Shown: positions 72 through 61,185 of the stretch, piece by piece
Position numbering within the stretch: the stretch's first letter is position 1
Layout: each line of letters starts with the position of its first letter
Source: Candidatus Omnitrophota bacterium
Lineage (GTDB): Bacteria > Omnitrophota > Gorgyraeia > Gygaellales > Profunditerraquicolaceae
Assembly (NCBI GenBank): GCA_022710715.1
Contig: JAKLGJ010000001.1
Span: forward strand, 298,041-362,040
Direction: 5' to 3'
DNA length: 64,000 bases
Translations under genes and position numbers: made by a program
The notes under the pieces: generated by a model
The model's input: only the letters and a program-made list of their open reading frames with translations
What the model was told of the DNA's origin: nothing
Databases searched by the model: none

Positions 72-2981
72 ATGGTCAGGGCGTATTATTACCGGCTCTT
101 CGGCAGGTTCAACGGTATCGGCCTGATCATCGACGATGATACTGCGGTGGAGCTGGCCAGGTCCATTGTCATTTCCCAGCGCCAGCAGGAGGCGAAAGAT
201 GGTTACGTGGAACCTCCGGCGCAGCAGACCGGATGGTCGCGGGCGTCGAAGGTTGCGCTGGCGCTCGGCGTGCTGGCCGGCGCTGTGGCCGTGGGCAATC
301 TTTTCGAGCACAGCCAGGACGACGGGGTGACCGCGCAGGACCTGGAAGAAGCGCTGTACCTGTTTGGCGAATCGCCCTTTGCCGTATCGGCGCAGCCGAT
401 GGATGACGGCGCCCTGGCATTTGCGCCAGCGGATACCGCGATCCAGGAAGAAGGCAAGCTGCCCATCATCGGCGATATCATCGCATTTTTCGGTTCGTTG
501 ATTGACCCGACCACTTCCATCGAGGCGGTGGGTTCCAACGGCCTGCCCATAACCGTGAGCATGAACAGCACGGTTATTACGGTCGGCGATGTGGGTATGC
601 TGTTTCTTGACCGGGAAACCGGGGTGATCCGTTATACCCGTTATGGTACTATTGCAGGGACCGGCAGCGTTAGGCCCGGAGAGCCGTATTATCAGCAGTA
701 TTACAACGAGATGAGCAAGATGCTGATCTCTTTGAAGACGGGCAATCTGAAGTCCGGAGAATTATCGGTCGGTCAGGAAGAAGACCTGGCCGAGATTATC
801 GGGGAATTCCAGAAATACCACCCGGATTATGCAGGGACCGAATCGTTCACCATCCACTTGTATCATCATGATGACTACATAATGGATGCGCGCAGCATTT
901 CTGTTCACAACGGTGCATATGTTTTGGACAGGCAGACCGGCGAGCTGCACTATATGGATTTTATAACGCGTAAGTCGCTGCAGCCGGAGGATAAAGATTA
1001 CCGCAATAAGATTCAAGAGATGCGCGAGAAACTGTCTGATCTTCGTCTGGGAACACCGGTAAATAAGCATCTCCTGGCGAAAATGGAAGCCGAATTGCAA
1101 GAATATCTGGATTTGGGAGCGGTCAGGGTTACTTCTCCGGGAGGTTTGACTGTCGGAGTGAGCATGAACGTGACCACGATCACCATCGAAGAGGTCAGCC
1201 CGATCTCTCTGGACCGCCGGAACGGAACGATCAGCTACGGGGTGTACTGGACCGGCGAAACGCGCCGGGTAGAGCCGACGGACCAGGATTATCCGCGCTG
1301 GCTGGGCGAAATGACCGGCAGTATCGACAGTATGCTCAAGGCGAACCTGGAGACCATGATCTTGAGTTTCGACGACCAGGCCTTCATGTACAATGTGCTC
1401 GACGAGCTGCGCGGGTACGAGAATAACACTGCACTGTCCGGGGACGGCGGGAGCGAGAAGACGCCGGAGATGCGGGATGTTTACGCCGTGGATATTCCGG
1501 GAAGAGTCAAGGAAGACGCGGATAAGAAGCAGCACAGCGGCAGTTCCGGCGGATCGAGTTCGAGCTCCGGCGAATCGAGCTCCAGCCTGGGCGGCAAGGT
1601 GAATACCGGGGTCGAAGATTTCGACGGCGGGCAGACCAGAGAAGAAGTTCAGGCGCAGAAGCTGGCCGGCGCCGTAAAAGAATACCTGGAAAGCCGGTTC
1701 GCGGCGCTTGCTGCTGATTTTGCCCATCTCGACTGGACGAGCACTCAAGAAGAATTTTTCAGCCGGGTGAAAGATGAATTGAAAGAAAACCTGGGAATTA
1801 TTTCCATCGAGAAAGAAGGCTTTGCGAAATGGCTGCTCTATTCGCGTTACGGCGACAGGATCATCGTGATCATGACTATCGGGGGGATCAGCGTGGAAGT
1901 CGATAAGCTGTATTTGTTCTCCCGGCTGCTGCAAAGAGGTAACGATAAAGATCGTATGACTGCAGTAGAACAGGTGAGAAGTTTCCGGGATGCCCGGGCA
2001 GTGGAACCGTTGATCCAGGCGCTGGGTGATTCGTACGGAATCCGTATGGAAGCGAAGAATGCTTTGTCGGAAATAGGCGCACCGGCTATCACGGGATTGA
2101 TGCGCGCTGTAAACGACGAGAATGAGTATGTGCGCGAATATGCCGCGGTTTTGCTGGGAGCGCTGGATGCCCGGCAGGCGGTGTATCTTCTGTATGAGTT
2201 GCTGAAGGATCAGGATTATAAGGTCAGAGATGCGGCGCTTTCAACCCTGGTTCTTTTCAACGCGTCCTTGTCCGGAGAACAGCTGTCGGATCTGCTTATT
2301 CGTGAAAAACATCCCAATGATAGGATCAAGTATCTTCTCTACCAGTTGCTGGAAGAAAGTCAGCTCGATGTCTGGATCGCCGGTCTGCAAGGGCCGTCTT
2401 ACGAACTGATGGAGTTGTCGGCGAAAGCTCTGGGTGCTTTGAAGAATGCCCGGGCCATACCGGCTTTGCTCAAGGCGTATGATAAGAACGTCGGCTGGCC
2501 ACAGAAATGGATCGAAGACGCCATAAGCGTCATTGCGAAAGCCAATCCGGATTTCGACCTGGCTAAAGCCAAAGAAGAATACCAAGCCGGCCGCGGGCAG
2601 GACGGAGGAAAGTCGCCGCAAGGGAGCATTCAAACCGCAGCTCCGGAAGATCTCGGAGGTATCGATCTGCGCGCTCTGCCCTTGAACGCTCAACCTGTGC
2701 CTGCAGCGGCAGCGATTGCCGGTTCCCTGATCGCGCCCGCGCAGGTTTCTTTGCAGGACCTGGATAAACAATGGCTTAACATTCAGCGGAAGCTGGCGCA
2801 GGGCCCGATGCCGTATCAGGAGATCAAAGCCTATGTCGCCGCCTGCTGTTCGCAGCAGGAATGCCGCGTGCAGAAGGAAGCGGTGTGCCAGTGGCTGGCG
2901 GATATCCTCAAGCTGGAAGAAGAGGCCGCTGTTTCTACGTCTGTTGAACTGAAAGAGATCCTGGCGCTGGCAGTTTCATAA
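72..2981 (+). CDS. Large (969 aa or more) protein of unknown function. It has two paralogous ~170-aa N-terminal modules, a Ser/Gly-rich linker, an acidic coiled region and C-terminal PBS-lyase-type HEAT repeats. The frame is open back to nt 3, so the gene may be 5'-truncated by the window edge.
   Basis: Long ORF. Repeated motif GLPITVSMNSTVITVGDV...RYTRYGT versus GGLTVGVSMNVTTITIEEV...SYGVYWTG. Low-complexity SGSSGGSSSSSGESSSS segment. HEAT-like repeats (VEPLIQALGDS..., VREYAAVLLGALD..., KVRDAALSTL...). No in-frame stop between nt 3 and the ATG at 72. Confidence 0.5.
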   Translation: MVRAYYYRLFGRFNGIGLIIDDDTAVELARSIVISQRQQEAKDGYVEPPAQQTGWSRASKVALALGVLAGAVAVGNLFEHSQDDGVTAQDLEEALYLFGESPFAVSAQPMDDGALAFAPADTAIQEEGKLPIIGDIIAFFGSLIDPTTSIEAVGSNGLPITVSMNSTVITVGDVGMLFLDRETGVIRYTRYGTIAGTGSVRPGEPYYQQYYNEMSKMLISLKTGNLKSGELSVGQEEDLAEIIGEFQKYHPDYAGTESFTIHLYHHDDYIMDARSISVHNGAYVLDRQTGELHYMDFITRKSLQPEDKDYRNKIQEMREKLSDLRLGTPVNKHLLAKMEAELQEYLDLGAVRVTSPGGLTVGVSMNVTTITIEEVSPISLDRRNGTISYGVYWTGETRRVEPTDQDYPRWLGEMTGSIDSMLKANLETMILSFDDQAFMYNVLDELRGYENNTALSGDGGSEKTPEMRDVYAVDIPGRVKEDADKKQHSGSSGGSSSSSGESSSSLGGKVNTGVEDFDGGQTREEVQAQKLAGAVKEYLESRFAALAADFAHLDWTSTQEEFFSRVKDELKENLGIISIEKEGFAKWLLYSRYGDRIIVIMTIGGISVEVDKLYLFSRLLQRGNDKDRMTAVEQVRSFRDARAVEPLIQALGDSYGIRMEAKNALSEIGAPAITGLMRAVNDENEYVREYAAVLLGALDARQAVYLLYELLKDQDYKVRDAALSTLVLFNASLSGEQLSDLLIREKHPNDRIKYLLYQLLEESQLDVWIAGLQGPSYELMELSAKALGALKNARAIPALLKAYDKNVGWPQKWIEDAISVIAKANPDFDLAKAKEEYQAGRGQDGGKSPQGSIQTAAPEDLGGIDLRALPLNAQPVPAAAAIAGSLIAPAQVSLQDLDKQWLNIQRKLAQGPMPYQEIKAYVAACCSQQECRVQKEAVCQWLADILKLEEEAAVSTSVELKEILALAVS

Positions 2982-2982
2982 A

Positions 2983-3062
2983 GGGGACACAGCATTTTGC
3001 AAAGGGGACAGATCTGCCCGATTTTCTCGACGGAGGGTTTTGGGTGGACCTGTCCCCTTTTA
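2983..3062 (-). repeat. GGGGACA-family ~80-nt intergenic repeat, copy A (reverse orientation), immediately after the stop of the 969-aa ORF
   Basis: The reverse complement matches the consensus AGGGGACAGGTCCACCCAAAAC..CTCCGTCGA.AAAATCG.CAGATGTGTCCCCTTTG.AAA.TGCTGTGTCCCCTT seen at five other sites in this window. Confidence 0.7.
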
Positions 3063-7077: not shown

Positions 7078-8346
7078 ATGAAAGTCAAATTCCACACCCT
7101 CGGCTGCAAGGTGAACCAGTACGAAACCCAGCGCATCCGGGAAGCGTTCCTCGCCCGGGGACTGACCGAAGCTTCCGCCGCGGATAAAGCGGATATCTAT
7201 ATCGTCAATACCTGCACGGTTACCCATAAAGCCGATCGCGAATCGTTATACTGGATCCATCGCAGTCACCGGGAGAATCCCGGAGCTCCGATCATCGTGA
7301 CCGGATGCATGGCCGCTTTCGATCTGAAGCTGCTCAAGGCGCAGGCCGGGGTGCGCTGCGTGGTGGGAAATGAGCGCAAGCTTGAGTTGCCGGATATCTG
7401 CCGCCGGTTTTTGCCGGCATCGCGCCGTAAGCGGGCTGCCGCGATTGGGCCGCCGCCTGCCGGGATCAGCTTTTTCGAAGGGCACACCCGGGCTTTTCTC
7501 AAGATCCAGGACGGTTGCAATAATCGCTGCAGCTACTGCAAGGTGGCTTTGGTCCGGGGAGCCTCGCGCAGCCGGTCGCAGGACGAGATCGTCGACGAAG
7601 CGCGGCAATTGGTCGCGCATGGTTTCCGGGAGATCGTGCTCACCGGGATATGTCTGGGCGCGTACGGCCGGGATGTACAGCCGAAGCAGGATCTCGCCAG
7701 TTTGATCGGCGCGCTGGAAACGCTTCCCGGCCTGGAACGCGTCAGGTTGAGCTCTATCGAAGCCGGGGATGTCACTCCGGGCTTGATCGCGGCGCTGGCG
7801 GGTTCGCGCGTTATGTGCCGGCACCTGCATATTCCTATCCAGAGCGGAGACGATCAGATCCTCAAAGCGATGCGGCGCAGATATACTGCCGCCGATTACG
7901 CCCGGTTGATCCGCAGGATCAGAAAGGCTGTTCCCGGTGTCGCCATCACCACCGATGTGCTGGTGGGATTTCCCGGGGAAGAAGAACGGCATTTTCAGAA
8001 TACCCTTAAACTGGTTCGCGCGATCAAACCTTCCGGCGTGCATATTTTTCCTTACAGCCCGCGTCCGGGCACCGCGGCGTTCGGCTTGAAAGAGCCTTGG
8101 GCCGGCGCGCAGACGGTAAAAGAAAGAATGCGCCGGCTGGAAGCAGCGGCTGAAAAGCTGCGCGTAGCTTACCGGAAGAAATTCCTCGGTCGCACAGTTG
8201 CGGTTTTGTTCGAATCCCGCCTTAAAGAAGACCCGCAATGCTGGGAGGGTCATACCGACACGTACCTGAAGGTGCGCCTGCGCAGCCGCAGGAACCTGGA
8301 GAACCGCACCCTGCAGGTCAGATTGACCCGGGATTGCATTGGTTAA
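7078..8346 (+). CDS. mtaB: tRNA methylthiotransferase of the MiaB/MtaB family (MtaB-like, no obvious TRAM extension)
   Basis: N-terminal MTTase domain (FHTLGCKVNQYET). Radical SAM motif CNNRCSYC. Confidence 0.7.
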   Translation: MKVKFHTLGCKVNQYETQRIREAFLARGLTEASAADKADIYIVNTCTVTHKADRESLYWIHRSHRENPGAPIIVTGCMAAFDLKLLKAQAGVRCVVGNERKLELPDICRRFLPASRRKRAAAIGPPPAGISFFEGHTRAFLKIQDGCNNRCSYCKVALVRGASRSRSQDEIVDEARQLVAHGFREIVLTGICLGAYGRDVQPKQDLASLIGALETLPGLERVRLSSIEAGDVTPGLIAALAGSRVMCRHLHIPIQSGDDQILKAMRRRYTAADYARLIRRIRKAVPGVAITTDVLVGFPGEEERHFQNTLKLVRAIKPSGVHIFPYSPRPGTAAFGLKEPWAGAQTVKERMRRLEAAAEKLRVAYRKKFLGRTVAVLFESRLKEDPQCWEGHTDTYLKVRLRSRRNLENRTLQVRLTRDCIG

Positions 8347-8347
8347 A

Positions 8348-8407
8348 GGGGACGTTCCCCAAGGTACCACCCCTGTGACCAGGGGTGGTACCTTGGGGAA
8401 CGTCCCC
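8348..8407 (+). repeat. REP palindrome pair (BIME-like): GGGGACGTTCCCCAAGGTACCACCCCTG, a 5-nt loop, and its reverse complement
   Basis: A perfect ~28-nt inverted repeat immediately after the mtaB stop. The same unit occurs at 29009, 29736 and 32589. Confidence 0.8.
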
Positions 8408-8564
8408 ATAAGAGACTTGACACCGGGTAGAAAGAGTGTTAGACTAAACTGTTGCAAAATCCGTTATTTCCATTTATGCGCGGCTGGGGAATGTTCATAG
8501 CCGCCGCTTTATCTTTATGCCCTGCCATAAACGGCAGGTTACAGGCCCGAAGGGAGTGATTAAT

Positions 8565-26391: not shown

Positions 26392-27018
26392 ATGGCGATC
26401 AATTTTATCGGGTTAGTCGTTTCTTTTGCGCTGTTGATGCTGGCGATCACCGTGCACGAGTTTGCCCACGGCTATGTCGCTTTCAAACTGGGAGATCAGA
26501 CCGCCAGATTATCCGGCCGGCTGACGTTGAATCCCCTGGCGCATATCGATCCGTTCTGGACGGTCATCCTGCCGGTGATGCTCTTTATCACTACCGGGGG
26601 AAGGTTCGTGTTCGGTTCGGCGAAGCCGGTGCCGGTGAACTACGCTGCGTTGCGTAATCCCAAACGCGACATGATCTGGATCGGGATAGCCGGGCCGCTG
26701 GCGAATTTCCTATTAGCTTTCGTGATCAGCCTGGCCTGGAAATTCATCCCCGGCGCCGACGCGGTTTCTTTTCTGCTGGCGAACCTGATACATTTGAACG
26801 TTGTCCTGGGTGTGTTCAACCTGATACCGGTTCCGCCGCTCGACGGTTCCCGGGTGCTCATGGGGCTGTTGCCGTATGAAGCCATGAAAAGTTACGCCGC
26901 GGCCGAGCCGTACGGTTTTATCATCGTTTCGGTGCTGATGTTTACCGGCGTTCTGTATACGATCATCGATCCGTTGATCATCTTTATCCAGAACCTGATC
27001 ATGTGGGTCCATTTCTGA
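26392..27018 (+). CDS. Site-2 protease family (M50) zinc metalloprotease
   Basis: HEFAHG in TM1. Polytopic. Confidence 0.7.
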   Translation: MAINFIGLVVSFALLMLAITVHEFAHGYVAFKLGDQTARLSGRLTLNPLAHIDPFWTVILPVMLFITTGGRFVFGSAKPVPVNYAALRNPKRDMIWIGIAGPLANFLLAFVISLAWKFIPGADAVSFLLANLIHLNVVLGVFNLIPVPPLDGSRVLMGLLPYEAMKSYAAAEPYGFIIVSVLMFTGVLYTIIDPLIIFIQNLIMWVHF

Positions 27019-27020
27019 TT

Positions 27021-28118
27021 ATGAAAAAAATACCCGTACAACTCGCGCATCGTTCCTACCAGATACTGGTGGGAGAAGGTCTGATCGACCGTCTGGGAGC
27101 GGTGCTTCCGCCGGCTGCGGTTTCAGGCCGGCGTGCCGCGTATTGTTTGAGCTTTCCCGTCATATGGAAGCGTTTCGGGCCGAAGGTAAAGCGCGCGCTG
27201 GCGCAGCAGGGCTATACCGTGCGCAGCCGGCTTGTTCCGGATACCGAACGCAGCAAGTCGTTATCCGTGGCGACGGCAGTGTTCAAGGATCTGGCGGCGT
27301 ATGACAGCAAACAGGCGGCGTTCATCATCGCTCTGGGCGGGGGAGTGATCGGCGATCTGGCCGGATTCGTGGCTTCTACGTATCGCCGGGGCATTCCGTA
27401 CGTGCAGGTGCCCACAACGCTGCTGGCCCAGGTGGATTCGAGCATCGGCGGTAAGACCGGCGTCGACCTGCCGGAAGGGAAGAATCTGGTCGGGACTTTT
27501 TACCAGCCGCGGCTGGTGGTCAGCGATGTCGCTGCGCTTTCCAGTTTGCCGGCGCGGCAGATGCGCAGCGGGCTGGCGGAAGTGATCAAATACGCGGTTC
27601 TGGCGGGCGGCGGATTATTCGCGTTCCTGGAAAAACATTTGCAGGATGTGCTCCGGTATGACCGGGCCAGTCTGGAAGCGGTGGTCGGCGCCTGCGCCCG
27701 GATAAAAGCCGGTATTGTCAGCCGTGACGAACAGGAGGAAAAGTCTTTACGCACGCATCTGAACTTCGGTCATACTATCGGTCACGCCATAGAATCGGCG
27801 GCGGGTTACCGCCGCTATACCCACGGTGAGGCAGTGGCTCTGGGAATGCTCTGTGCCTGCGATATCAGCCGGGCGCTGGGGCTGACCGGAGCGGATGCCG
27901 GATTGAAGATCGAGGGGTTGATCCGGCAGTCCGGTTTGCCGGTTGTCATCAAAGGTTTGAACGCCGCGCAGATCATCGCCGCGCATTACCACGATAAGAA
28001 GTTCAGCGGCGCGGAGAATCGCTTTGTGCTGGTCAGGGATATCGGGCGGACCGCGATCGTCAAGAACGTGCCGCTGCCGGTCATCGCCGCCGCAGTCAAG
28101 AACCGCCTCTCCACGTAA
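27021..28118 (+). CDS. aroB: 3-dehydroquinate synthase
   Basis: Dehydroquinate-synthase fold motifs (GGGVIGDLAGFVA, NFGHTIGHAIE). Confidence 0.8.
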   Translation: MKKIPVQLAHRSYQILVGEGLIDRLGAVLPPAAVSGRRAAYCLSFPVIWKRFGPKVKRALAQQGYTVRSRLVPDTERSKSLSVATAVFKDLAAYDSKQAAFIIALGGGVIGDLAGFVASTYRRGIPYVQVPTTLLAQVDSSIGGKTGVDLPEGKNLVGTFYQPRLVVSDVAALSSLPARQMRSGLAEVIKYAVLAGGGLFAFLEKHLQDVLRYDRASLEAVVGACARIKAGIVSRDEQEEKSLRTHLNFGHTIGHAIESAAGYRRYTHGEAVALGMLCACDISRALGLTGADAGLKIEGLIRQSGLPVVIKGLNAAQIIAAHYHDKKFSGAENRFVLVRDIGRTAIVKNVPLPVIAAAVKNRLST

Positions 28119-28173
28119 TTCCCTTCCCGCAACTCCTCCCAGCTTTTTTTCAATCGGCATAATTGCTTCGCAG

Positions 28174-28327
28174 GTCCCGGCAAGGAGTATTCCGCAGCAC
28201 CGTTCGGTTTTCCCCGCCGAGGAAAACCTCTCTTGGAGAATCTGCTCGCTCGTCCCTGAATGAAGCGCGGGGACACCCTGGCCGCTCGCATATCCTTACA
28301 TGCTGCTCCATACTCCTTGCCGGGACC
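28174..28327 (+). ncRNA. Candidate structured RNA or element, copy 1. A 17-bp outer stem and an 8-bp inner hairpin, then a conserved ~75-nt core shared with 43807..43955.
   Basis: Outer inverted repeat GTCCCGGCAAGGAGTAT/ATACTCCTTGCCGGGAC. Inner hairpin GGTTTTCC/GGAAAACC. Core CTTGGAGAA.CTGCTCGCTCGTCCCTGAA...GGGACACCCTGGCCGCTCGCAT..T.CATGCTGCT. Confidence 0.35.
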
Positions 28328-28407
28328 GACAAAGCAGCTGTGCAGATTAAAAAATTTCAGGAATGATTTGAAATTGATTGTGTATCGAGAAGAGTGGAGT
28401 GAGGGGG

Positions 28408-28971
28408 TTACCGGTTAACGAGGCGGATGGTTTTGCCGTTGTAGTCCAGCTCTACGCCTTCCATGGTGATCGCGATCACTACGGCGCCTTCGATGTTGTC
28501 GCCTACCTGTACGATGCGGTCATTGATCAAAGCAGTGCCATGGTCGGTGTTATCCGCGAAGAAAATGCCGTTGAGCATGAAATCGGGAACGCCTTGCTTG
28601 GTTTTGGCGATGGGAGTCTTTACCTCATGTTCACCGGAAGGAGTCAAGGTAACGGCATTTTTCAGATCGATAGGTTCGGCCTTGACCGCGGCTTTCCCGG
28701 ATTTAGAGGATTTCCTGGCGGCCGGTTTGCCGGATTTCTTCTCGGTACTTTTAGCGCCGGTCTTGGTCGTTTTGGTATTTTTTGAGGCCGCGAACTGTTT
28801 GCTTACCATGGGAAGCAGATAATCGAAGGCCAATTTCCCTACCACAAAACCGACCAGCACGAATAAAGCGATGACAACGTACGATTTTGAATCTTTCTGG
28901 GGTGATGTCGATTTCTGCTGCGGCGCTGCTGGTTGTTGCGTAGTTTGTGGAGAGACCGGTTTTTGTTCCAT
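28408..28971 (-). CDS. Membrane-anchored protein with a Lys/Pro/Gln-rich linker and a C-terminal GspB/PilP-like beta domain. This is the only clear minus-strand gene in the window.
   Basis: A TM helix (YVVIALFVLVGFVVG). C-terminal GIFFADNTDHGTALINDRIVQVGDNIEGAVVIAITMEGVELDYNGKTIRL. Start set at MEQKP because the longer ORF would read through the REP. Confidence 0.35.
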   Translation of the reverse strand: MEQKPVSPQTTQQPAAPQQKSTSPQKDSKSYVVIALFVLVGFVVGKLAFDYLLPMVSKQFAASKNTKTTKTGAKSTEKKSGKPAARKSSKSGKAAVKAEPIDLKNAVTLTPSGEHEVKTPIAKTKQGVPDFMLNGIFFADNTDHGTALINDRIVQVGDNIEGAVVIAITMEGVELDYNGKTIRLVNR

Positions 28972-29008
28972 AGGAAGTATTGTAACAAAAAACCGCATTT
29001 TGTCAAGT

Positions 29009-29761
29009 GGGGACGTTCCCCAAGGTACCACCCTTGAGCAAAGCGACAAAAATGTATGTTAGATTCCCGCTCTTCAAGCGTCTATTAAGTTAAAAAGGAG
29101 GGCGGTATGCCTAGAGGTCCCAGATTTCTGATGGATGACGGGTATTATCACATTGTAACGCGAGGAAATAACAAAAAGTTGCTGTTTATCGATGAATTCG
29201 ATTATGAAATGATGAAAAAAACTATCGCCAGATATTTAGAAAAGTTTAACATTGGCCTCGTGCATTACTGTTTGATGCCTAATCATCTTCATTGGGTGGT
29301 GCAAACATGGACAGCCCGAGATCTGCCGAAATTCATGCAGGGCGTATTGCAGGTGTATGCCGCATATTTCAAAGATAAATACAGCGCAGTCGGTTATTTG
29401 TTCCAGAATCGCTATAAAAGTTTGTTTATTGATAAAGAAAGTTACCTTTTGGAATGTGCGCGGTACATCGAAAGGAATCCTCTAAGGGCGAAATTGGTAA
29501 ATGACCTTCGCGAATATAAATACAGCAGTTTTCATTATTATGCCCTGGCGCAACCGGACGAATTGCTTAATAAAATCAATCCTTTATACAAGGATTTCGG
29601 GAGTAATCCGGTTGCACGTCAAGCTGCGTATTTGAAGTATGTGCTTCAAGAACGGCCGTACGATCAGATTGTTGATGATGTGTTCAGGATCAGGTGAATG
29701 TATAGTGCAGTTGCGATGAATATTGAAAAATTTCAGGGGTGGTACCTCGGGGAACGTCCCC
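29009..29761 (+). mobile_element. REP/RAYT unit: two inverted REP copies flanking a REP-associated tyrosine transposase gene (low GC)
   Basis: REP at 29009..29033 (+) and 29736..29761 (inverted) bracket the Y1-transposase-like gene at 29107..29697. The internal DNA is markedly AT-rich relative to its surroundings. Confidence 0.75.
29107..29697 (+). CDS. REP-associated tyrosine transposase (RAYT; IS200/IS605 TnpA-like Y1 HUH enzyme)
   Basis: HUH motif HLHWVV. Catalytic Tyr region YIERNPLRAKLV. Size about 196 aa. Flanked by inverted REPs. Confidence 0.75.
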   Translation: MPRGPRFLMDDGYYHIVTRGNNKKLLFIDEFDYEMMKKTIARYLEKFNIGLVHYCLMPNHLHWVVQTWTARDLPKFMQGVLQVYAAYFKDKYSAVGYLFQNRYKSLFIDKESYLLECARYIERNPLRAKLVNDLREYKYSSFHYYALAQPDELLNKINPLYKDFGSNPVARQAAYLKYVLQERPYDQIVDDVFRIR

Positions 29762-31045: not shown

Positions 31046-32587
31046 ATGGGTAAAGAGATAGTTCTGATTCTTGATTTCGGTTCACAATATACGCAGTTGA
31101 TCGCCCGAAGAGTCAGGGAGAACAAGGTTTTCTCCCGGATCCTTCCCTATACTACTTCGGCTAAAGAGATCGCTGCCTACGCTCCCAAAGGGCTGATTCT
31201 TTCCGGTGGCCCGGCTTCTGTTGCCGAAAAGAAAGCTCCGCATCCGGATCCGGCGATCTTCAAGCTGGGTATCCCGGTGCTGGGCATCTGTTACGGCATG
31301 CAGTTAATGGCCCAGATGCTTGGCGGAAAGACCAAGCCCAGCAAAGGCCGCGAATACGGCAAGACCGAACTTTTTATAGACGATAACCGGGATCTTTTCA
31401 GCAATATCCCGGGTAATTTTACCTGCTGGTCCAGCCACGGCGATTATGTGACCAAGCTGCCGCAGGGATTCATCGTCAGCGCGCATACTTTGAGCAGTCC
31501 GATCTGCGCCATTTCGAACAAGAAAAGAAGAATGTACGGCGTGCAGTTCCATCCGGAAGTCACCCACACCGAAAAGGGCAATCAGATCATCAGCAACTTC
31601 CTGTTCCGCATCTGCGGGTGCACCGGCAGATGGAACATGCAGTCGTTCATCAAGGAAAGCATCGAGACCATCCGCAAGACCGTCGGCCCAAGCAAAGTGG
31701 TTCTGGGTTTGAGCGGCGGCGTCGATTCTTCGGTAGCCGCGCTTTTGATCCACAAGGCCATCGGCAGGAACCTGCGCTCCATTTTCGTGGATAACGGCGT
31801 CATGCGCAAGGATGAGCCGGAGCAGATCAAGAAGGTTTTTCGCGCGATGTACCATCTCAACCTGGATTACGTCGACGCTTCGAAAAAGTTTTTGACCAAG
31901 CTGAAAGGGATCACCGATCCCGAAGAGAAACGCAAGATTATCGGCAAAGTGTTCGTTGAGGTTTTCGAAGAGGAAGCCAAAGCGTTCAAAGGAGTCAAAT
32001 TCCTGGCGCAGGGAACGCTCTATCCGGATGTGATCGAATCGATTTCGCCCACCGGCGCGCCGTCAGCCAAGATCAAGAGCCATCACAATGTCGGCGGGTT
32101 GCCCGCGCAGATGAACCTGAAGCTGGTTGAGCCGTTGCGCGACCTGTTCAAGGATGAAGTGCGCGCCATCGGCAAGGAACTGAATCTGCCGGAAAGCATT
32201 ATTTACCGCCAGCCGTTCCCGGGGCCGGGTCTGGCCATCCGCATCATCGGCGAAGTCACCGAAGCGCGGCTGAAGATCCTGCGCGAAGTGGACAGCCGGG
32301 TGATCGAAGAGATCGTCAGGGCCGGTTTCTATAATCAGGTCTGGCAGTCCTTCGCGGTGCTGTTGCCGATCAAGACAGTCGGCGTCATGGGCGACGAGCG
32401 CACCTACGAGAACGTGGTGGCGTTGCGCTGCGTGACCAGCCTGGACGGAATGACTGCGGACTGGGTCAAGCTGCCTTACGAAGTCCTGGAAAAGATTTCC
32501 AATCGTATCATCAACGAGGTTAAAGGCGTTAACCGCGTGGTATACGATATTTCTTCCAAGCCTCCTGCAACCATCGAATGGGAATAA
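31046..32587 (+). CDS. guaA: GMP synthase (glutamine-hydrolysing)
   Basis: GATase1 (GICYGMQ) plus ATP-PPase (SGGVDSSV) plus the C-terminal dimerisation domain. Confidence 0.9.
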
Positions 32588-32588
32588 A

Positions 32589-32648
32589 GGGGACGTTCCC
32601 CAAGGTACCACCCCTGGGTTCAGGGGTGGTACCTTGGGGAACGTCCCC
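32589..32648 (+). repeat. REP palindrome pair (BIME-like), same family as 8348..8407
   Basis: GGGGACGTTCCCCAAGGTACCACCCCTG, the loop GGTTC, and the reverse complement, immediately after the guaA stop. Confidence 0.8.
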
Positions 32649-32704
32649 ATCTATCAGGGAAAAAGCGCTATCATAGCGATACCGCCGGTATCCCCACTGT
32701 TTCT

Positions 32705-36148: not shown

Positions 36149-36473
36149 GGGACAACTTTAGGGGACAGGTCCACCCAAAACACCTCGACGGAGAAAATCG
36201 ACAGATGTGTCCCCTTTGCAAAATGCTGTGTCCCCTTTTTACCTTAATCCTGCATATGAGCGCACCCGGCAGCTTTGTTCGCTCAGTAGAATTTTTCCCT
36301 TCGGGTCGTCCTTGCGTTTGTATAAACGCCAGGACAAAATTCTAAATTCGCTCACCAAGCCGCCGGATACGCTCATATGCACAATAAATACTAAAGGGGA
36401 CACAGGAAATTCTGAAGGGGACACATCTGTCCGTTTTTATCGACGGAGGCTTTTGGGTGGACCTGTCCCCTTT
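36148..36473 (+). repeat. Composite palindromic element made of GGGGACA-family copy B, a 12-nt IR (TGCATATGAGCG), a ~110-nt core, the matching IR, and an inverted GGGGACA-family copy C
   Basis: Copies at 36148..36240 (+) and 36397..36473 (inverted). IR at 36251-36262 and 36370-36381. The core carries a CCCTTCGGG hairpin. Confidence 0.6.
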
Positions 36474-43010: not shown

Positions 43011-43775
43011 ATGGCTATCCTTAAAACCCAGGCATTTGTGCTCAAACGCTATGATCTGCGGGAAACCTCGCTGCTGGTCAATTTTTATACCCGCGATTTC
43101 GGCAAGCTCACCGGCGAAATGAAAGGGATCCGCAAAGACCCCCGGAAATTCGCCAGTACCGTGGACAGCTTCTCCCTGAACGAGATCGTTTTCTACCAGC
43201 GCCGTAATTCTTCGGTGCATCTGATCAGCCAGTGCGACAGCTGCGAGCATTTCGGGCCGCTGCGGGAAAGTATACCCAAGATCGCCGCCGCGACGGTGAT
43301 GATGGACCTGCTCGATGCGGTCATGCCGCCTGAAGACAAGAATCCCGAGATCTTCGATCTGACCAGGGATGTGCTGACCGCTTTATGCACGGCCAGGGAT
43401 TTCGATAAATTACTGACTATTTTCAAAATCCGGGTGCTTTCCCTGTCGGGTTTTAAACCGCATCTTGATTCCTGCGTCATCTGCGGCAGGAAAGTATTCA
43501 TGCAGTGTAAGTTCAGCCTGAAGCTGGGAGGTTTGCTCTGCCCGCACTGCCTGGCCAGGGACGTGCAGGGTCGTACCATTTTCAGGGGCACGGTGGCGAC
43601 GATCATGCATATCGAAAAGAATACCGTCGGGGCAAATCTTACTCTGGGGATGAATCCGCAGATCAAACGCGAGCTGGAGGCGGTACTCAACGCTTTCCTG
43701 CATTTTCACGTGGGCAAAGAGCTTAAGTCGCAGCGGGTGATGCAGAGCCTGGAGCAGGCCGGCGCATTCACCTGA
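43011..43775 (+). CDS. recO: DNA repair protein RecO
   Basis: N-terminal OB fold (QAFVLKRYDLRETS) and a C-terminal Cys4 zinc motif (CVICG...CPHC). Confidence 0.8.
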   Translation: MAILKTQAFVLKRYDLRETSLLVNFYTRDFGKLTGEMKGIRKDPRKFASTVDSFSLNEIVFYQRRNSSVHLISQCDSCEHFGPLRESIPKIAAATVMMDLLDAVMPPEDKNPEIFDLTRDVLTALCTARDFDKLLTIFKIRVLSLSGFKPHLDSCVICGRKVFMQCKFSLKLGGLLCPHCLARDVQGRTIFRGTVATIMHIEKNTVGANLTLGMNPQIKRELEAVLNAFLHFHVGKELKSQRVMQSLEQAGAFT

Positions 43776-43806
43776 AGCTGTCAGAGCGCCTGGTTAGCGG
43801 CGAGTA

Positions 43807-43955
43807 TGTTCTAAAGCATCACCGCTCGTCCTGCCCACCGTGCAGGACTCGCTTGGAGAAGCTGCTCGCTCGTCCCTGAAGCAATAGCGGGACACCCTGG
43901 CCGCTCGCATCTTCTACATGCTGCTTTAGAACACACTCGCCGCCAATCGAGTATT
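43807..43955 (+). ncRNA. Candidate structured RNA or element, copy 2. A ~20-bp outer stem and a 7-bp inner hairpin (GTCCTGC/GCAGGAC), then the same conserved core as 28174..28327.
   Basis: Outer IR GGCGAGTATGTTCTAAAGCA / TGCTTTAGAACACACTCGCC. The core is about 85% identical to copy 1. Confidence 0.35.
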
Positions 43956-44000
43956 CTGGCAGCTTACTATGCGGTCGAGGAGAATGGAGGGATCGAATAT

Positions 44001-44936
44001 ATGAAAATCGCGATCATCGGGCCGGGAGCGCTGGGCAGTCTTTTCGCCGCGCTGTTGACCAAGCACAAATCCAAAGATAACGAGATCTGGCTGCTGGATA
44101 AGGATGAGAAACGCGCGGTCCGTCTGAACCGTCAGGGGATCGCAGTGGAGGGAGTAGCCGGCAACTGGCAGGCGGCGGTCAAGGTGACCGCGGATCCGGC
44201 AGGTATCGGCACGTCCGATCTGGTCATCCTCTGCGTCAAGTCCTATGATACCAAGGCGGCGATGACGCGGGCGCAGGCATTGATCGGCGACGCGACTGCG
44301 GTGTTGACCGTGCAGAACGGCATCGGCAATGTCGAGCTGATCGGGGAGGTCGCCGGTCCCGAGAAAGTCATCGGCGGGGTGACCAATCTGGGAGTGACGC
44401 TGCTGGAAGCCGGTAAGATCCGGTATTGCGGCAAAGGGGATACGGTCATCGGAAAGATAGACGGTAAAACTTCGGTTCAGATGCGGGCAATCCGCGAATT
44501 GTTTAACGGCGCGGGGCTCGATACCAGGATATCCCAGGATATCAAAGGTTTCCTCTGGTCGAAGCTGGTGATCAACGCGGGGATCAATCCGCTGACCGCA
44601 CTGACCCGTTTGTCCAACGGCAAACTGCTGGATTATCCCGGAGCCAGGAAACTCCTGCGCGAGGCGGTAACCGAAGCGGTAAAGATCGCCAAGCGCAAAC
44701 GCATCAAACTGCTCTACGATGATCCGCTCGCCAAGGTTGAAGCGGTATGCGAGGCGACCGCGGATAATATGTCTTCCATGCTGCAGGATGTTTTGCACGC
44801 CAAGCGTACCGAGATCGACGCCATCAACGGAGTGGTGGTGCGTTTCGGCCAGGAATTGGGGGTTACCGTGCCGGTTAATTCGACGCTGGTGGATCTGATC
44901 AAAACCATCGAATCCAGCTACTCCGCGCAGGAGTAG
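44001..44936 (+). CDS. panE: 2-dehydropantoate 2-reductase
   Basis: MKIAIIGPGALGSLFAALL Rossmann N-terminus. ApbA family. Confidence 0.75.
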   Translation: MKIAIIGPGALGSLFAALLTKHKSKDNEIWLLDKDEKRAVRLNRQGIAVEGVAGNWQAAVKVTADPAGIGTSDLVILCVKSYDTKAAMTRAQALIGDATAVLTVQNGIGNVELIGEVAGPEKVIGGVTNLGVTLLEAGKIRYCGKGDTVIGKIDGKTSVQMRAIRELFNGAGLDTRISQDIKGFLWSKLVINAGINPLTALTRLSNGKLLDYPGARKLLREAVTEAVKIAKRKRIKLLYDDPLAKVEAVCEATADNMSSMLQDVLHAKRTEIDAINGVVVRFGQELGVTVPVNSTLVDLIKTIESSYSAQE

Positions 44937-46668: not shown

Positions 46669-46766
46669 GGGGACAGGAGCTGAAATGAGGGGACAGGTCC
46701 ACCCAAAACAGCTCGTCGAGAAAATCGGACAGATGTGTCCCCTTCGTAAATTGCTGTGTCCCCTTC
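46669..46766 (+). repeat. GGGGACA-family repeat copy D, with a 20-nt tandem duplication spanning the polX stop (46655-46674 equals 46675-46694)
   Basis: AGGAGCTGAAATGAGGGGAC occurs twice in tandem, then GGTCCACCCAAAACAGCTCGTCGAGAAAATCGGACAGATGTGTCCCCTTCGTAAATTGCTGTGTCCCCTT. Confidence 0.7.
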
Positions 46767-56265: not shown

Positions 56266-56353
56266 GGGGACAGGTGCCCGCAGGGCAACCCAAAACTCTC
56301 CGTCGACAAAAATCGACAGATGTGTCCCCTTCGGAATTTGCTGTGTCCCCTTT
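56266..56353 (+). repeat. GGGGACA-family repeat copy E (variant with GGTGCCCGCAGGGCAACCC in place of GGTCCACCC)
   Basis: Immediately after the stop of the sigma factor gene. Confidence 0.7.
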
Positions 56354-59549: not shown

Positions 59550-61106
59550 ATGGTCTACCTAGCCATCGTTTACCACATGCACCAGCCGTATTACAAGAAT
59601 CTGCTCAACAACCAGACAGACATGCCCTGGGTGCGTTTGCACGGGATCAAGGATTACCTGGACATGCTGCTGCTGGTGCAGCGGTTCCCCAAGGTGCACC
59701 TGACCATCAACATGGTGCCTTCGCTCATGGAGCAGATCGATGATTACGAGAAGGGGCTGGTCAAGGACCGTTTCCTGGATATTTCCGCCAAACCCGCAGC
59801 CGAACTGAACCAGCAGGAAAAAGATTTCGTGATCAATAATTTCTTCATGATCAACAAAGAGCGGGTGATCGCGCGCTATCCGCGTTACTATGAATTGTAT
59901 TTCATGAAAGAGACCCAGCAGCATTTCAGCGCCCAGGATGTGCTGGATCTGCAGGTTTGGTTCAACCTGGCCTGGTTCGACCCGATGTTCACCGAAGATA
60001 TGCCGGAGCTGCGCAAAGTCATGCGCAAGGCCCGCTTCTTCAATGAGCAGGATAAGAAGACCGTGCTTAAAGCGCAGCTGGATATATTGAAACAGATCCT
60101 GCCGGCTTACCGCAAAGCCATAGCCGAAAAGCAGGTGGAGATCACGGTTACGCCGTATTATCATCCCATCCTGCCGTTGTTGTATAACACGCGTTTGCAG
60201 CTGGAAGCCAATCTCAAGAGCACGCTGCCTCCGGTCACTTTTTCCTATCCCGAAGACGCCCGCCAGCAGATCAACATGGCGGTGGAGTATTTCAAGAATA
60301 AATTCGGGGTCCCTCCCGTAGGCATGTGGCCGTCCGAAGAATCGGTCTGCGAGCATATCGTGCCGTACCTGATGCAGGCCGGGATCAAATGGATCGTTAC
60401 CGATGAAGCCATTCTCTTCAAATCGTTGAAGCGCAAGCGCCGAGATACCAGGCTGCTCTATCAGCCGCATGTCCTGCACCGGGAAGAGGGGGATCTCAAT
60501 ATCATTTTCCGCGACCGCAACCTTTCGGATCTGATCGGATTTGTCTATCCCAACTGGCTGGCGCAGGACGCGGTGAACGATTTCATGGGGCACATCGAAA
60601 ATATCTCCAAGGCGTACAAGGGCAAGGATGTTTTCGTAGCTATCGCGTTGGACGGGGAGAACGCCTGGGAATATTACAAGAACGACGGCCACGATTTCCT
60701 GGAAACTCTGTATCAGCGTTTGTCCGACGCGCCGTTCGTGCAGGCGGTAACCCCGAGCGAATATTTCGAGAAGCATCCTCCGACTGCGCAGATCAAACGG
60801 CTTTCCGCCGGCTCCTGGATTTACGGGGAATTCTCGAAGTGGATCAATAACCCCTATAAGAACAAAGGATGGGAGTACCTGACGTATGCCCGCCAGGCTC
60901 TGCAGCGTCAGATCGATGAGAAGCAACCGGTTTCGGATCTGACCTGGAAACAGATGCACGTGGCAGAGGGCAGCGATTGGTACTGGTGGCTGGGGGAGGA
61001 CTACCCCGGTTACTTCGACAGCCTTTTCCGCATGCATCTGTCCAACTTCTACACCATGCTCGGCCGCGACGTCCCCGACTATCTGAAACGCCCCATCTCT
61101 CCCTAA
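59550..61106 (+). CDS. Glycoside hydrolase family 57 (alpha-glucan-active, branching-enzyme- or amylase-like)
   Basis: N-terminus HQPYY...HGIKDYLDM, typical of GH57. Confidence 0.8.
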   Translation: MVYLAIVYHMHQPYYKNLLNNQTDMPWVRLHGIKDYLDMLLLVQRFPKVHLTINMVPSLMEQIDDYEKGLVKDRFLDISAKPAAELNQQEKDFVINNFFMINKERVIARYPRYYELYFMKETQQHFSAQDVLDLQVWFNLAWFDPMFTEDMPELRKVMRKARFFNEQDKKTVLKAQLDILKQILPAYRKAIAEKQVEITVTPYYHPILPLLYNTRLQLEANLKSTLPPVTFSYPEDARQQINMAVEYFKNKFGVPPVGMWPSEESVCEHIVPYLMQAGIKWIVTDEAILFKSLKRKRRDTRLLYQPHVLHREEGDLNIIFRDRNLSDLIGFVYPNWLAQDAVNDFMGHIENISKAYKGKDVFVAIALDGENAWEYYKNDGHDFLETLYQRLSDAPFVQAVTPSEYFEKHPPTAQIKRLSAGSWIYGEFSKWINNPYKNKGWEYLTYARQALQRQIDEKQPVSDLTWKQMHVAEGSDWYWWLGEDYPGYFDSLFRMHLSNFYTMLGRDVPDYLKRPISP

Positions 61107-61185
61107 GGGGACAGGTCCACCCAAAACCCTCCGTCGATAAAATCGTACAGATGTGTCCCCTTTGAGAATTGCTGTGTCCCCTTTT
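61107..61185 (+). repeat. GGGGACA-family repeat copy F
   Basis: AGGGGACAGGTCCACCCAAAACCCTCCGTCGATAAAATCGTACAGATGTGTCCCCTTTGAGAATTGCTGTGTCCCCTTTT immediately after the GH57 stop. Confidence 0.7.

Follow-up and report, generated by a model that had tools for sequence, protein, structure and literature searches.

The 64-kb stretch of Candidatus Omnitrophota DNA analysed here (contig JAKLGJ010000001.1, "the window" below) carries two copies of a structured intergenic element, which belongs to a previously undescribed family, new both to Rfam and to the searchable literature. Copy 1 lies between the stop codon of aroB (28118) and a convergent T2SS-C-like gene, the open reading frame (ORF) of which ends at 28408. 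Copy 2 begins 1 nt past the stop codon of recO (43773-43775), and it is followed by a 36-nt spacer with a ribosome-binding site and then by the start of panE (44001). An earlier reading made from the letters of the window (the sequence-only reading) had placed both copies in intergenic positions after the aroB and recO stops; this siting holds, and Pfam bears out the gene names. The best non-self homologues of the window RecO (60-65% identity) are proteins named Candidatus Omnitrophota or Omnitrophica, which places the organism in this phylum. The flanking genes and the parts of the two copies are given below, where "plus" is the strand as given in the window, P1 to P5 are the helices of the fold, and R1 is the covariance model built from an ungapped MAFFT alignment of 37 sequences (A3).

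27003..28118, plus strand: aroB (3-dehydroquinate synthase), upstream of copy 1; Pfam PF01761 and PF24621.
28144..28354, plus strand: copy 1, whole element, from the minimum-free-energy fold of 28103-28377; R1 cmsearch match at 28183-28318, 111 bits.
28173..28190, plus strand: copy 1, 5' arm of the P1 core, GGTCCCGGCAAGGAGTAT, paired with 28310-28327.
28194..28199, plus strand: copy 1, 5' strand of P2, GCAGCA, paired with TGCTGC at 28301-28306 and closing the three-way junction.
28202..28232, plus strand: copy 1, hairpin P3, stem 28206-28213/28221-28228 (GGTTTTCC/GGAAAACC), conserved loop CCGCCGA at 28214-28220.
28233..28245, plus strand: copy 1, 5' strand of P5, TTGGAGAATCTGC, paired with 28288-28300 (GCATATCCTTACA).
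28246..28287, plus strand: copy 1, invariant core, namely TC, GC, TC, P4 (GTCCC 28252-28256/GGGAC 28270-28274), the 9-nt bulge ACCCTGGCC at 28275-28283, GC and TC.
28310..28327, plus strand: copy 1, 3' arm of the P1 core, ATACTCCTTGCCGGGACC.
43011..43775, plus strand: recO, upstream of copy 2; Pfam RecO_N and RecO_C; homologues named RecO of Candidatus Omnitrophota.
43777..43964, plus strand: copy 2, whole element, from the minimum-free-energy fold; R1 cmsearch match at 43805-43936, 113 bits.
43794-43801: family terminal motif TTAGCGGC in copy 2.
43799..43818, plus strand: copy 2, 5' arm of P1, GGCGAGTATGTTCTAAAGCA, paired with 43922-43941.
43824..43852, plus strand: copy 2, hairpin P3, GTCCTGC 43828-43834/GCAGGAC 43842-43848, loop CCACCGT.
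43853..43865, plus strand: copy 2, 5' strand of P5, TTGGAGAAGCTGC, paired with 43907-43918 (GCATCTTCTACA).
43866..43906, plus strand: copy 2, invariant core, namely TC, GC, TC, P4 (GTCCC 43872-43876/GGGAC 43889-43893), the bulge ACCCTGGCC at 43894-43902, GC and TC.
43922..43941, plus strand: copy 2, 3' arm of P1, TGCTTTAGAACACACTCGCC.
44001..44936, plus strand: panE/apbA (ketopantoate reductase), downstream of copy 2 and, in relatives, immediately adjacent to recO.

Copy 1 is a branched hairpin, the base of which extends from a T-run (28144-28150) to an A-run (28349-28354), and its fold scores z = -6.1 against shuffled sequence. The sequence-only reading had proposed two look-alike copies, and the core blocks CTTGGAGAAnCTGCTCGCTCGTCCCTGAA and GGGACACCCTGGCCGCTCGCAT indeed occur twice each in the window with up to 3 mismatches allowed, but not at all in shuffles. 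In a full scan of the window, R1 finds copies 1 and 2 alone, the next match reaching 11 bits. The outer inverted repeat drawn around both copies is present as a perfect 18-bp stem core in copy 1 and as a 20-bp stem with a single A x C mismatch in copy 2. Likewise, the inner hairpin at an equal relative position is P3 (28206-28228 and 43828-43848), and a GTCCC...GGGAC hairpin lies, as claimed, inside the core of both copies. Some of the extents have to be corrected: copy 2, given as 43807..43955, was off by about 8-14 nt, both hairpins reach further out (about 28144-28354 and 43777-43964), and the conserved part also takes in GCAnCACCGnTC on its 5' side. The stems had further been described as entirely different in sequence while still paired. 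The pairing is real, but the outer stems are not unrelated: they are homologous, covarying variants of one family stem, and such variants are found in other members too. P3 of copy 1 has a 2-bp extension past a UC/UC-type internal loop, and P3 of copy 2 is of a GC-rich type that is also present in other genomes; the two window copies have a lineage-specific P4 in common and differ in their P3 types.

Across the family, the whole unit is a branched hairpin of 190-210 nt, in which a long but imperfect outer stem encloses a three-way junction (P2/P3/P5) and the inner hairpin P4. The outer stem P1 starts with TTWGCGGG and ends with CCCGCWAA in most members. P2 (GCAGCA/UGCUGC) is followed by two unpaired C, and P3 is a variable 8-bp stem with the loop CCNCCGW and a GC/GC extension past a UC/UC internal loop. 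P5 is formed by UUGGAGUUUcUGC and GCAuAAACUACA, and within it lie a second UC/UC loop, GC/GC, UC, hairpin P4 and the 9-nt bulge ACCCUGGCC. The most conserved part of the unit is the interior, UCGCUC-P4-ACCCUGSCCGCUC and CACCGCUCG, and not the ends; the loops beside P4 (UCGCUC...ACCCUGGCCGCUC) are invariant. P4 varies from 12 to 42 nt in length, which together with a 1-nt indel in the P4 loop between the window copies rules out a small conserved peptide encoded in the core. Hairpin insertions of variable length occur at fixed points at four loci (L040, L061, L070 and L107; L-numbers are labels of homologous loci, and regions of 8-20 kb around the copies were examined). Two copies in one metagenome-assembled genome (MAG), L039 and L042, are near-identical save for a swapped P3 hairpin.

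Compensatory covariation, which the sequence-only reading had seen between the two copies, extends to the whole family and is heavy in every helix. In A3, 95% of the cells of the 37-pair structure pair and 22 of the 37 pairs change on both sides; none of 500 shuffles reached any of these measures. For 92 distinct sequences, 94.8% of the cells pair, compared with 35-45% in slid controls, and as many as 31 of the 37 pairs show changes on both sides. For covariation these sequences score 0.341 against 0.102 in shuffles, none of which (0 of 500) reached the observed value. The 92-sequence alignment was fitted to R1 and hence leans towards the model, but the MAFFT A3 result is free of this. In addition, RNAalifold recovered P3 and P5 de novo, without guidance.

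The covariance-model search for covarying homologues that had been proposed along with the two copies was decisively positive. About 100 homologues were found, in Candidatus Omnitrophota or unclassified MAGs and in sediment and groundwater metagenomes. An exact-pattern scan of species-representative genomes gave 14 true homologues, 9 of them in Candidatus Omnitrophota MAGs and the other 5 in a MAG labelled Planctomycetales and one unclassified MAG. Up to 4 exact-pattern copies were found per MAG, many of them at contig ends. The metagenome scan returned 92 stretches, about 78 of which are true homologues (sediment, groundwater). On the examined loci R1 gave 101 matches, including 7 divergent copies beyond the reach of the search pattern. 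The three copies in the MAG labelled uncultured Planctomycetales (CAYWCX01; L031-L033) are typical and identical to Omnitrophota-type metagenome copies (L115, L136, L093/L141). This could mean that the MAG is mislabelled or that the element moved between phyla. No family member was found in the viral contigs, phage records and plasmid records scanned, and a phage or plasmid origin is ruled out.

The novelty proposed by the sequence-only reading holds with respect to Rfam. Compared with Rfam 15 (4227 models), the element matches no family and the window gives 2 tRNAs alone. At E <= 10, copy 1 has two chance-level matches, both outside the element. Thirteen homologous loci gave tRNAs alone, and the region of L085 that holds the element together with a second structured repeat (A and B, see below) gave at E <= 10 a T-box alone, with 10 bits against a threshold of 93. 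On these results a known RNA family is ruled out, and no published description of the element was found in a literature search.

One explanation for such a family is a set of paralogous, independently transcribed, trans-acting non-coding RNA (ncRNA) genes on the minus strand. In this case, the outer stem would be a stalk for processing or stability, and the function, such as binding of a protein or ligand, would reside in the invariant junction and loops. Very strong covariation in all helices is what one would expect of such genes, and so are loops that stay invariant even in divergent copies found by the model alone, the insertion of hairpins at fixed points, motifs typical of RNA (GNRA loops and tandem sheared G.A pairs) on one strand only, and purifying selection on orthologous copies in situ alongside a drifting P4 loop. 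However, covariation alone is no proof of an RNA gene, because REPINs, which form hairpins in single-stranded DNA or mRNA and persist vertically, frequently show compensatory changes too (PMC3116915). The boundaries of the element also speak against separate genes. Similarity among copies ends at the hairpin base, and the flanks are unrelated save in one subfamily. No conserved upstream motif was seen across about 80 copies; no sigma-70-like promoter was found at either window copy, although the promoter consensus of Omnitrophota may differ, and no terminator-like site was found at either copy. An intrinsic terminator is ruled out likewise: the stem base has a 5' U-run and a 3' A-run on both strands and is not the hairpin plus U-tract of such a terminator. 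The element usually fills the intergenic spacer, which between co-directional genes leaves no room for signals of its own. With respect to both neighbouring genes, 29 copies are antisense and 23 sense, while 5 lie between divergent genes and 1 between convergent genes, and relative to local GC skew, a proxy for replication, the count is 21 to 24, without bias. Genes for small RNAs (sRNAs) are orientation-neutral to their neighbours as well. Overall, ncRNA genes are a possible but rather unlikely explanation. The novel ncRNA family of the sequence-only reading is thus a real covarying family outside Rfam, but that it is simply an ncRNA gene is not supported, given that no promoter or terminator was seen with it, that it is randomly oriented, that relatives have an empty site between recO and panE, and that it pairs in fixed order with another repeat or with an inverted copy of itself.

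The empty site is found in four relatives, where the recO-panE spacer measures 0, 0, 35 and 17 nt, compared with 225 nt in the window; R1 has no match over about 80 kb of these recO-panE loci. From this sequence comparison, copy 2 looks like an insertion into an operon junction, and a junction of 0-35 nt in relatives is another point against an ncRNA gene with its own signals. No consistent direct repeat was seen in the 14-nt flanks of 39 copies, that is, no target-site duplication. The terminal TTA...TAA switches in concert to TTT...AAA and is therefore part of the stem.

Alternatively, the element could be a host cis-acting RNA element of operon transcripts, such as an RNase III or RNase E site, a 3'-exonuclease barrier, a factor-independent terminator or an insulator, which would spread by recombination and not by transposition. 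It would work in either orientation, since the 45-70-bp stem forms on both strands. The position of the copies fits such a role, always in spacers, where they follow directly on a stop codon and leave 15-40 nt to the next start, and copy 1 is the sole structure between the convergent aroB and T2SS-C-like genes, where there is no canonical terminator. Moreover, Correia, ERIC and REP elements act in this way, and transcripts of bacterial MITEs (miniature inverted-repeat transposable elements) form long stem-loops that affect neighbouring mRNAs (PMC2649163; PMC2229807). Nevertheless, a role of the stem only leaves the invariant asymmetric loops and the three-way junction unexplained, and the same is true of motifs optimised on one strand in randomly oriented copies. 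Also, most operon junctions in relatives lack the element. We consider this explanation distinctly unlikely.

The two strands of the element are not equivalent. The minus strand folds better by 10-14 kcal/mol in 50 of 53 copies, irrespective of gene context; the possibility that the better-folding strand tracks the direction of the flanking genes was tested, and it does not. Three conserved UC/UC tandem mismatches of the plus strand correspond on the minus strand to tandem G.A pairs (CGAG/CGAG), and where P4 is short, its apical loop is GAAA, GUGA or GAA on the minus strand only. Hairpins of RNA and of single-stranded DNA are both stabilised by tandem sheared G.A pairs and by loops of the GNRA or GCGAAGC type, so that the type of molecule is not fixed by this evidence. 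The optimised strand is the minus strand, as either DNA or RNA, which in the window is antisense to aroB, recO and panE. The wobble counts, 69 G.U cells against 65 A.C cells, are about equal and thus give no sign of selection on one transcribed strand, nor do they fit the one-strand signature expected of an ncRNA gene.

Equal G.U and A.C counts and neutral orientation would both be expected of an element that acts as DNA. Its duplex might be a binding site for a nucleoid or topology protein, comparable to the IHF or gyrase sites of BIMEs and Correia elements, or it might extrude a cruciform, and the changes on both arms would then stem from template switching in quasi-palindromes and not from selection on RNA. 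Inverted repeats of more than 60 bp in one subfamily (flanked by the repeat U, see below) and a break of synteny at the exact edge of one copy (L110) are also consistent with it. On the other hand, five separate internal helices covary, including the small local P3 and P4, none of which a duplex site needs, and the conserved mismatches persist and are not corrected to perfect palindromes. A role purely at the DNA level is therefore very unlikely in our view.

One locus, the tmk-cysS spacer, can be followed across species. The element occupies this same spacer in three species (L009, L050 and L110), with a core that is 92-98% identical, compared with 70-80% identity of the flanking coding sequence, and with drift in the P4 loop and distal stem. 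These three copies share locus-specific features that are missing from other copies in the same MAG. Because the core is more similar than the flanks and because these features are shared, the comparison of the three sequences points to descent with the core under purifying selection, and not to homogenisation by gene conversion. In L110, synteny with L009 and L050 is held upstream and is lost exactly where the element ends on its 3' side (at about 1760), as if a rearrangement had occurred at the repeat.

In relatives, the element is also found combined with other repeats. For this purpose, the element is called A, the second structured repeat B and a further inverted repeat U. Element B is a rod-like repeat of about 170 nt with covarying helices (GUGCAC/GUGCAC, GUCUGC/GCAGAC, GUCGGC/GCCGAC), found neither in Rfam nor in the window.

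L085, 6885-7075, plus strand: element B.
L071, L074, L079, L084, L090, L095, L102, L112, L119, L123, L127, L132, L142, L146, L149, L152, L154, L156, L158 and L159: element B at other loci.
L071, L085, L096, L119, L127, L142 and L146: U flanking the element.
L079 1131-1787, L086 8989-9516, L103 1555-2325, L132 10223-11212, L136 3217-3852, L152 7824-8261, L157 410-1162, L144 1139-1660 and L105 1883-2200: small ORFs between partners (9 loci).

In 31 of 32 cases B lies 3' of A and shares its orientation; it is never 5' of A. The gap between them is 20-100 nt in 24 cases and 0.5-1.25 kb in 7; each of the 7 wide gaps holds one small ORF, on either strand, which is ORF6N, SIR2_2 or an orphan without Pfam match. 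At five loci there are two copies of A, always convergent, and two of these pairs enclose a small membrane-protein ORF. This suggests that the elements bound small gene cassettes. U is an inverted repeat of about 28 nt (TTTTGTAWWGTTCATAGACnnnGGTAACRC and its complement), which encloses A or A plus B in one subfamily and gives stems of more than 60 bp. A candidate upstream promoter, TTGTAW-N16-17-TAACRC, turned out to be one arm of U. Hairpins beside copies in L107, L118 and L160, which had been taken for solo stems, are divergent inverted copies of A. In L069 and L089, hairpins of about 75 nt lie about 60-140 nt 3' of the element and resemble its outer stem reversed, with a GUGA-type loop; they may be internally deleted derivatives.

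The fixed order with B and the convergent pairs around accessory ORFs would be unexpected for sRNA genes. They raise the possibility that A plus B, or A plus inverted A, are the folded ends of a new small mobile cassette with single accessory or defence-type genes. Such a cassette would move as a single strand, with an enzyme recognising the invariant core at the three-way junction; solo copies, including both window copies, would be cargo-less derivatives co-opted by the host, and in a variant of this scheme the invariant core itself could be catalytic or ligand-binding. We think it unlikely that this is what the family is. A related proposal is a catalytic or retroelement-type RNA, either a new class of self-cleaving ribozyme or the structured end of a cassette mobilised by retrotransposition or as a single strand, with B as its other end. 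The three-way junction with invariant internal loops and the fixed-order tandem with a different structured element, with optional cargo ORFs in between, are consistent with it, and known small ribozymes tend to cluster together. Yet no ribozyme or intron of Rfam was matched even at E <= 10, no reverse transcriptase or HUH gene lies nearby, and the cargo ORFs are on either strand, which makes this most improbable.

We consider it most likely, with about an even chance of being right, that the family is a dispersed non-autonomous structured repeat of Omnitrophota that was later retained by the host. It resembles dispersed elements of the MITE or REPIN type because the unit is an exact hairpin without recognised expression signals of its own and with neutral orientation, and because it is inserted in an operon junction, has multi-copy mosaic relatives, clusters with other repeats in fixed order and breaks assemblies. 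Several observations weigh against this. First, the relatives with the empty site are distant (62-65% RecO identity), and loss of the element there is possible; copy 2 is present in each of the six contigs from the window species, which leaves no contrast of filled and empty sites between close strains. Second, the copies per genome are few (1-4 by exact pattern), no transposase, RAYT, reverse transcriptase or HUH gene was found within 5 kb of about 90 copies, and no autonomous parent element turned up in the regions around the copies. Third, the interior of the element (junction and loops) is more conserved than its termini, unlike MITEs and REPINs, and purifying selection on the core in situ is not predicted for a purely selfish element. 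The invariance of the loops is partly built in by the search patterns, but the 7 copies found by the model alone keep the same loops.

The sequence data show the family itself, its fold and covariation, the limits of the unit, its neutral orientation, the empty site and the conservation in situ. How a dispersed repeat of this kind would move, by which strand and molecule, and what it would do for its host, we infer as follows. New copies would be made from a single-stranded intermediate, DNA or RNA, probably of the minus strand, which here is antisense to aroB and recO. An enzyme encoded elsewhere would recognise the fold and the invariant loops. Copies would enter intergenic spacers in either orientation without target-site duplication, and once inserted they would be co-transcribed with the neighbouring genes. 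A resident copy is then retained and its core kept by selection, presumably either because its very stable rod punctuates or insulates transcripts (processing, 3'-end protection, termination) or because it binds a host factor. The family would also mark the boundary of small accessory-gene cassettes.

A protein gene associated with the element (transposase, reverse transcriptase, Cas-like) was also looked for by all-against-all BLAST of 420 neighbouring ORFs, which gave housekeeping synteny and one spurious ORF, and the candidate was rejected. Minus-strand read-through of the element yields a shared false N-terminus, 'VRASRNSKR..PRRG.SSGAA', at L039 3255-3584, L073 11694-12023, L115 422-2464 and L110 938-1690. 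The element can thus corrupt gene calls and protein clusters.

The window contains other repeats as well. Perfect 28-bp palindromic hairpins (GGGGACGTTCCCCAAGGTACCACCCCTG...) are located at 8344-8409 and 32585-32650, with a fold z near -10, and partial copies of this palindrome family at 29005-29070 and 29732-29761. A repeat of about 80 nt with GGGGACA...TGTCCCC ends occurs at 36160-36237, 46688-46765, 56275-56352 and 61106-61183, and reversed at 2979-3060 and 36392-36473; two inverted copies of it flank 36238-36391. Other Omnitrophota loci (L072, L079, L104, L147 and L157) have similar GGGAC..GTCCC repeats immediately upstream of the studied element.

Omnitrophota have not been cultivated, and the non-coding part of their genomes is essentially unexplored. 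The family described here is large and phylum-specific, and its covariation support is above that of many curated RNA families. It joins dispersal in the manner of a selfish hairpin with in-situ purifying selection like that of a functional RNA, traits that are usually treated as alternatives, and it is a good test case for the domestication of dispersed repeats. It is also a warning that covariation alone cannot tell ncRNA genes from REPIN-like DNA. If the arrangement of A with B, or of A with inverted A, is truly a cassette system, it would point to a new mobilisation mechanism. In practice, R1 lets annotators mask or label these elements, which create spurious ORFs and break MAG assemblies.

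Among known systems, REPINs (REP-BIMEs mobilised by RAYT) are similar to the element in being extragenic and multi-copy, with the whole hairpin as the replicative unit and with common compensatory changes (PMC3116915). They are also mostly vertical and long-lived, form higher-order clusters and tandems with other repeats, and lack classical target duplication (PMC3116915 and the RAREFAN preprint abstract). REPINs, however, are simple hairpins of about 70-110 nt made of two inverted REPs, in which the ends (the REP 16-mers) are most conserved and the spacer is free. The element too forms a hairpin, but one of 190-210 nt that is branched (three-way junction plus P4) and most conserved in the interior loops. 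REPINs go with a single-copy RAYT gene (a Y1 HUH transposase), which they usually flank; none was seen in the 8-20 kb regions around copies of the element, which has a low known copy number and no GTAG-type REP head. Compared with a classical MITE, most copies share TTWGCGGG...CCCGCWAA and a homologous outer stem, but the arms covary and carry conserved asymmetric internal loops. The target-site duplication of classical MITEs was not seen (39 copies), and the 5 kb around about 90 copies gave no recurrent transposase-like family, the ORFs between partners being ORF6N, SIR2_2 and orphans. PATEs derived from IS200/IS605 have different subterminal hairpins at their two ends, neither terminal inverted repeats nor a duplication, and insert 3' of a fixed tetra- or pentanucleotide. 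The element gives a mixed picture here: duplication is lacking and A-B pairs have unlike structured ends in fixed order, but solo A has a long inverted-repeat stem, and no fixed flanking tetranucleotide was seen.

Correia elements (CREE/NEMIS) of Neisseria and ERIC elements of enterobacteria resemble it as intergenic units of 100-200 bp with inverted ends. They are co-transcribed with their neighbours, and their stem-loops are cut or protected by RNase III/RNase E, altering adjacent gene expression (PMC2649163; PMC2229807). They have conserved terminal inverted repeat sequences and TA target duplications (PMC2229807), in contrast to the element, which is without duplication and in which the terminal TTA/TAA belongs to the stem; nor do they have a counterpart to its internal branched fold with invariant loops. 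An integron attC site (RYYYAAC...GTTRRRY, arrays in one orientation) is ruled out by the termini TTWGCGG...CCGCWAA, with the A/T end outward, and by copies that are solitary, located after housekeeping genes and randomly oriented. With the ncRNAs of Rfam (6S, Y RNA/YrlA, riboswitches, small ribozymes) the element shares a junction of several helices closed by a long one, unpaired nucleotides that do not vary, heavy covariation and hairpin insertions of variable length at fixed points, but unlike them it is multi-copy, orientation-neutral, without a recognised promoter or terminator, and inserted in operon junctions. BOX of Streptococcus pneumoniae and CIR of Caulobacter and Brucella combine modules in various ways, as U, A and B are combined here, and CIR RNAs have two arms and a linker with a phylogenetically conserved secondary structure (PMC2229807; PMC3049150). 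Their sequences, host phylum and architecture differ from those of the element, in which GANTC sites or boxA/B/C are not evident. A branched, invariant-loop core that surpasses the ends in conservation, the lack of a target duplication or of an identified enzyme, and clear purifying selection on resident copies fit none of these kinds. In its behaviour the element is MITE- or REPIN-like, but it is no known element.

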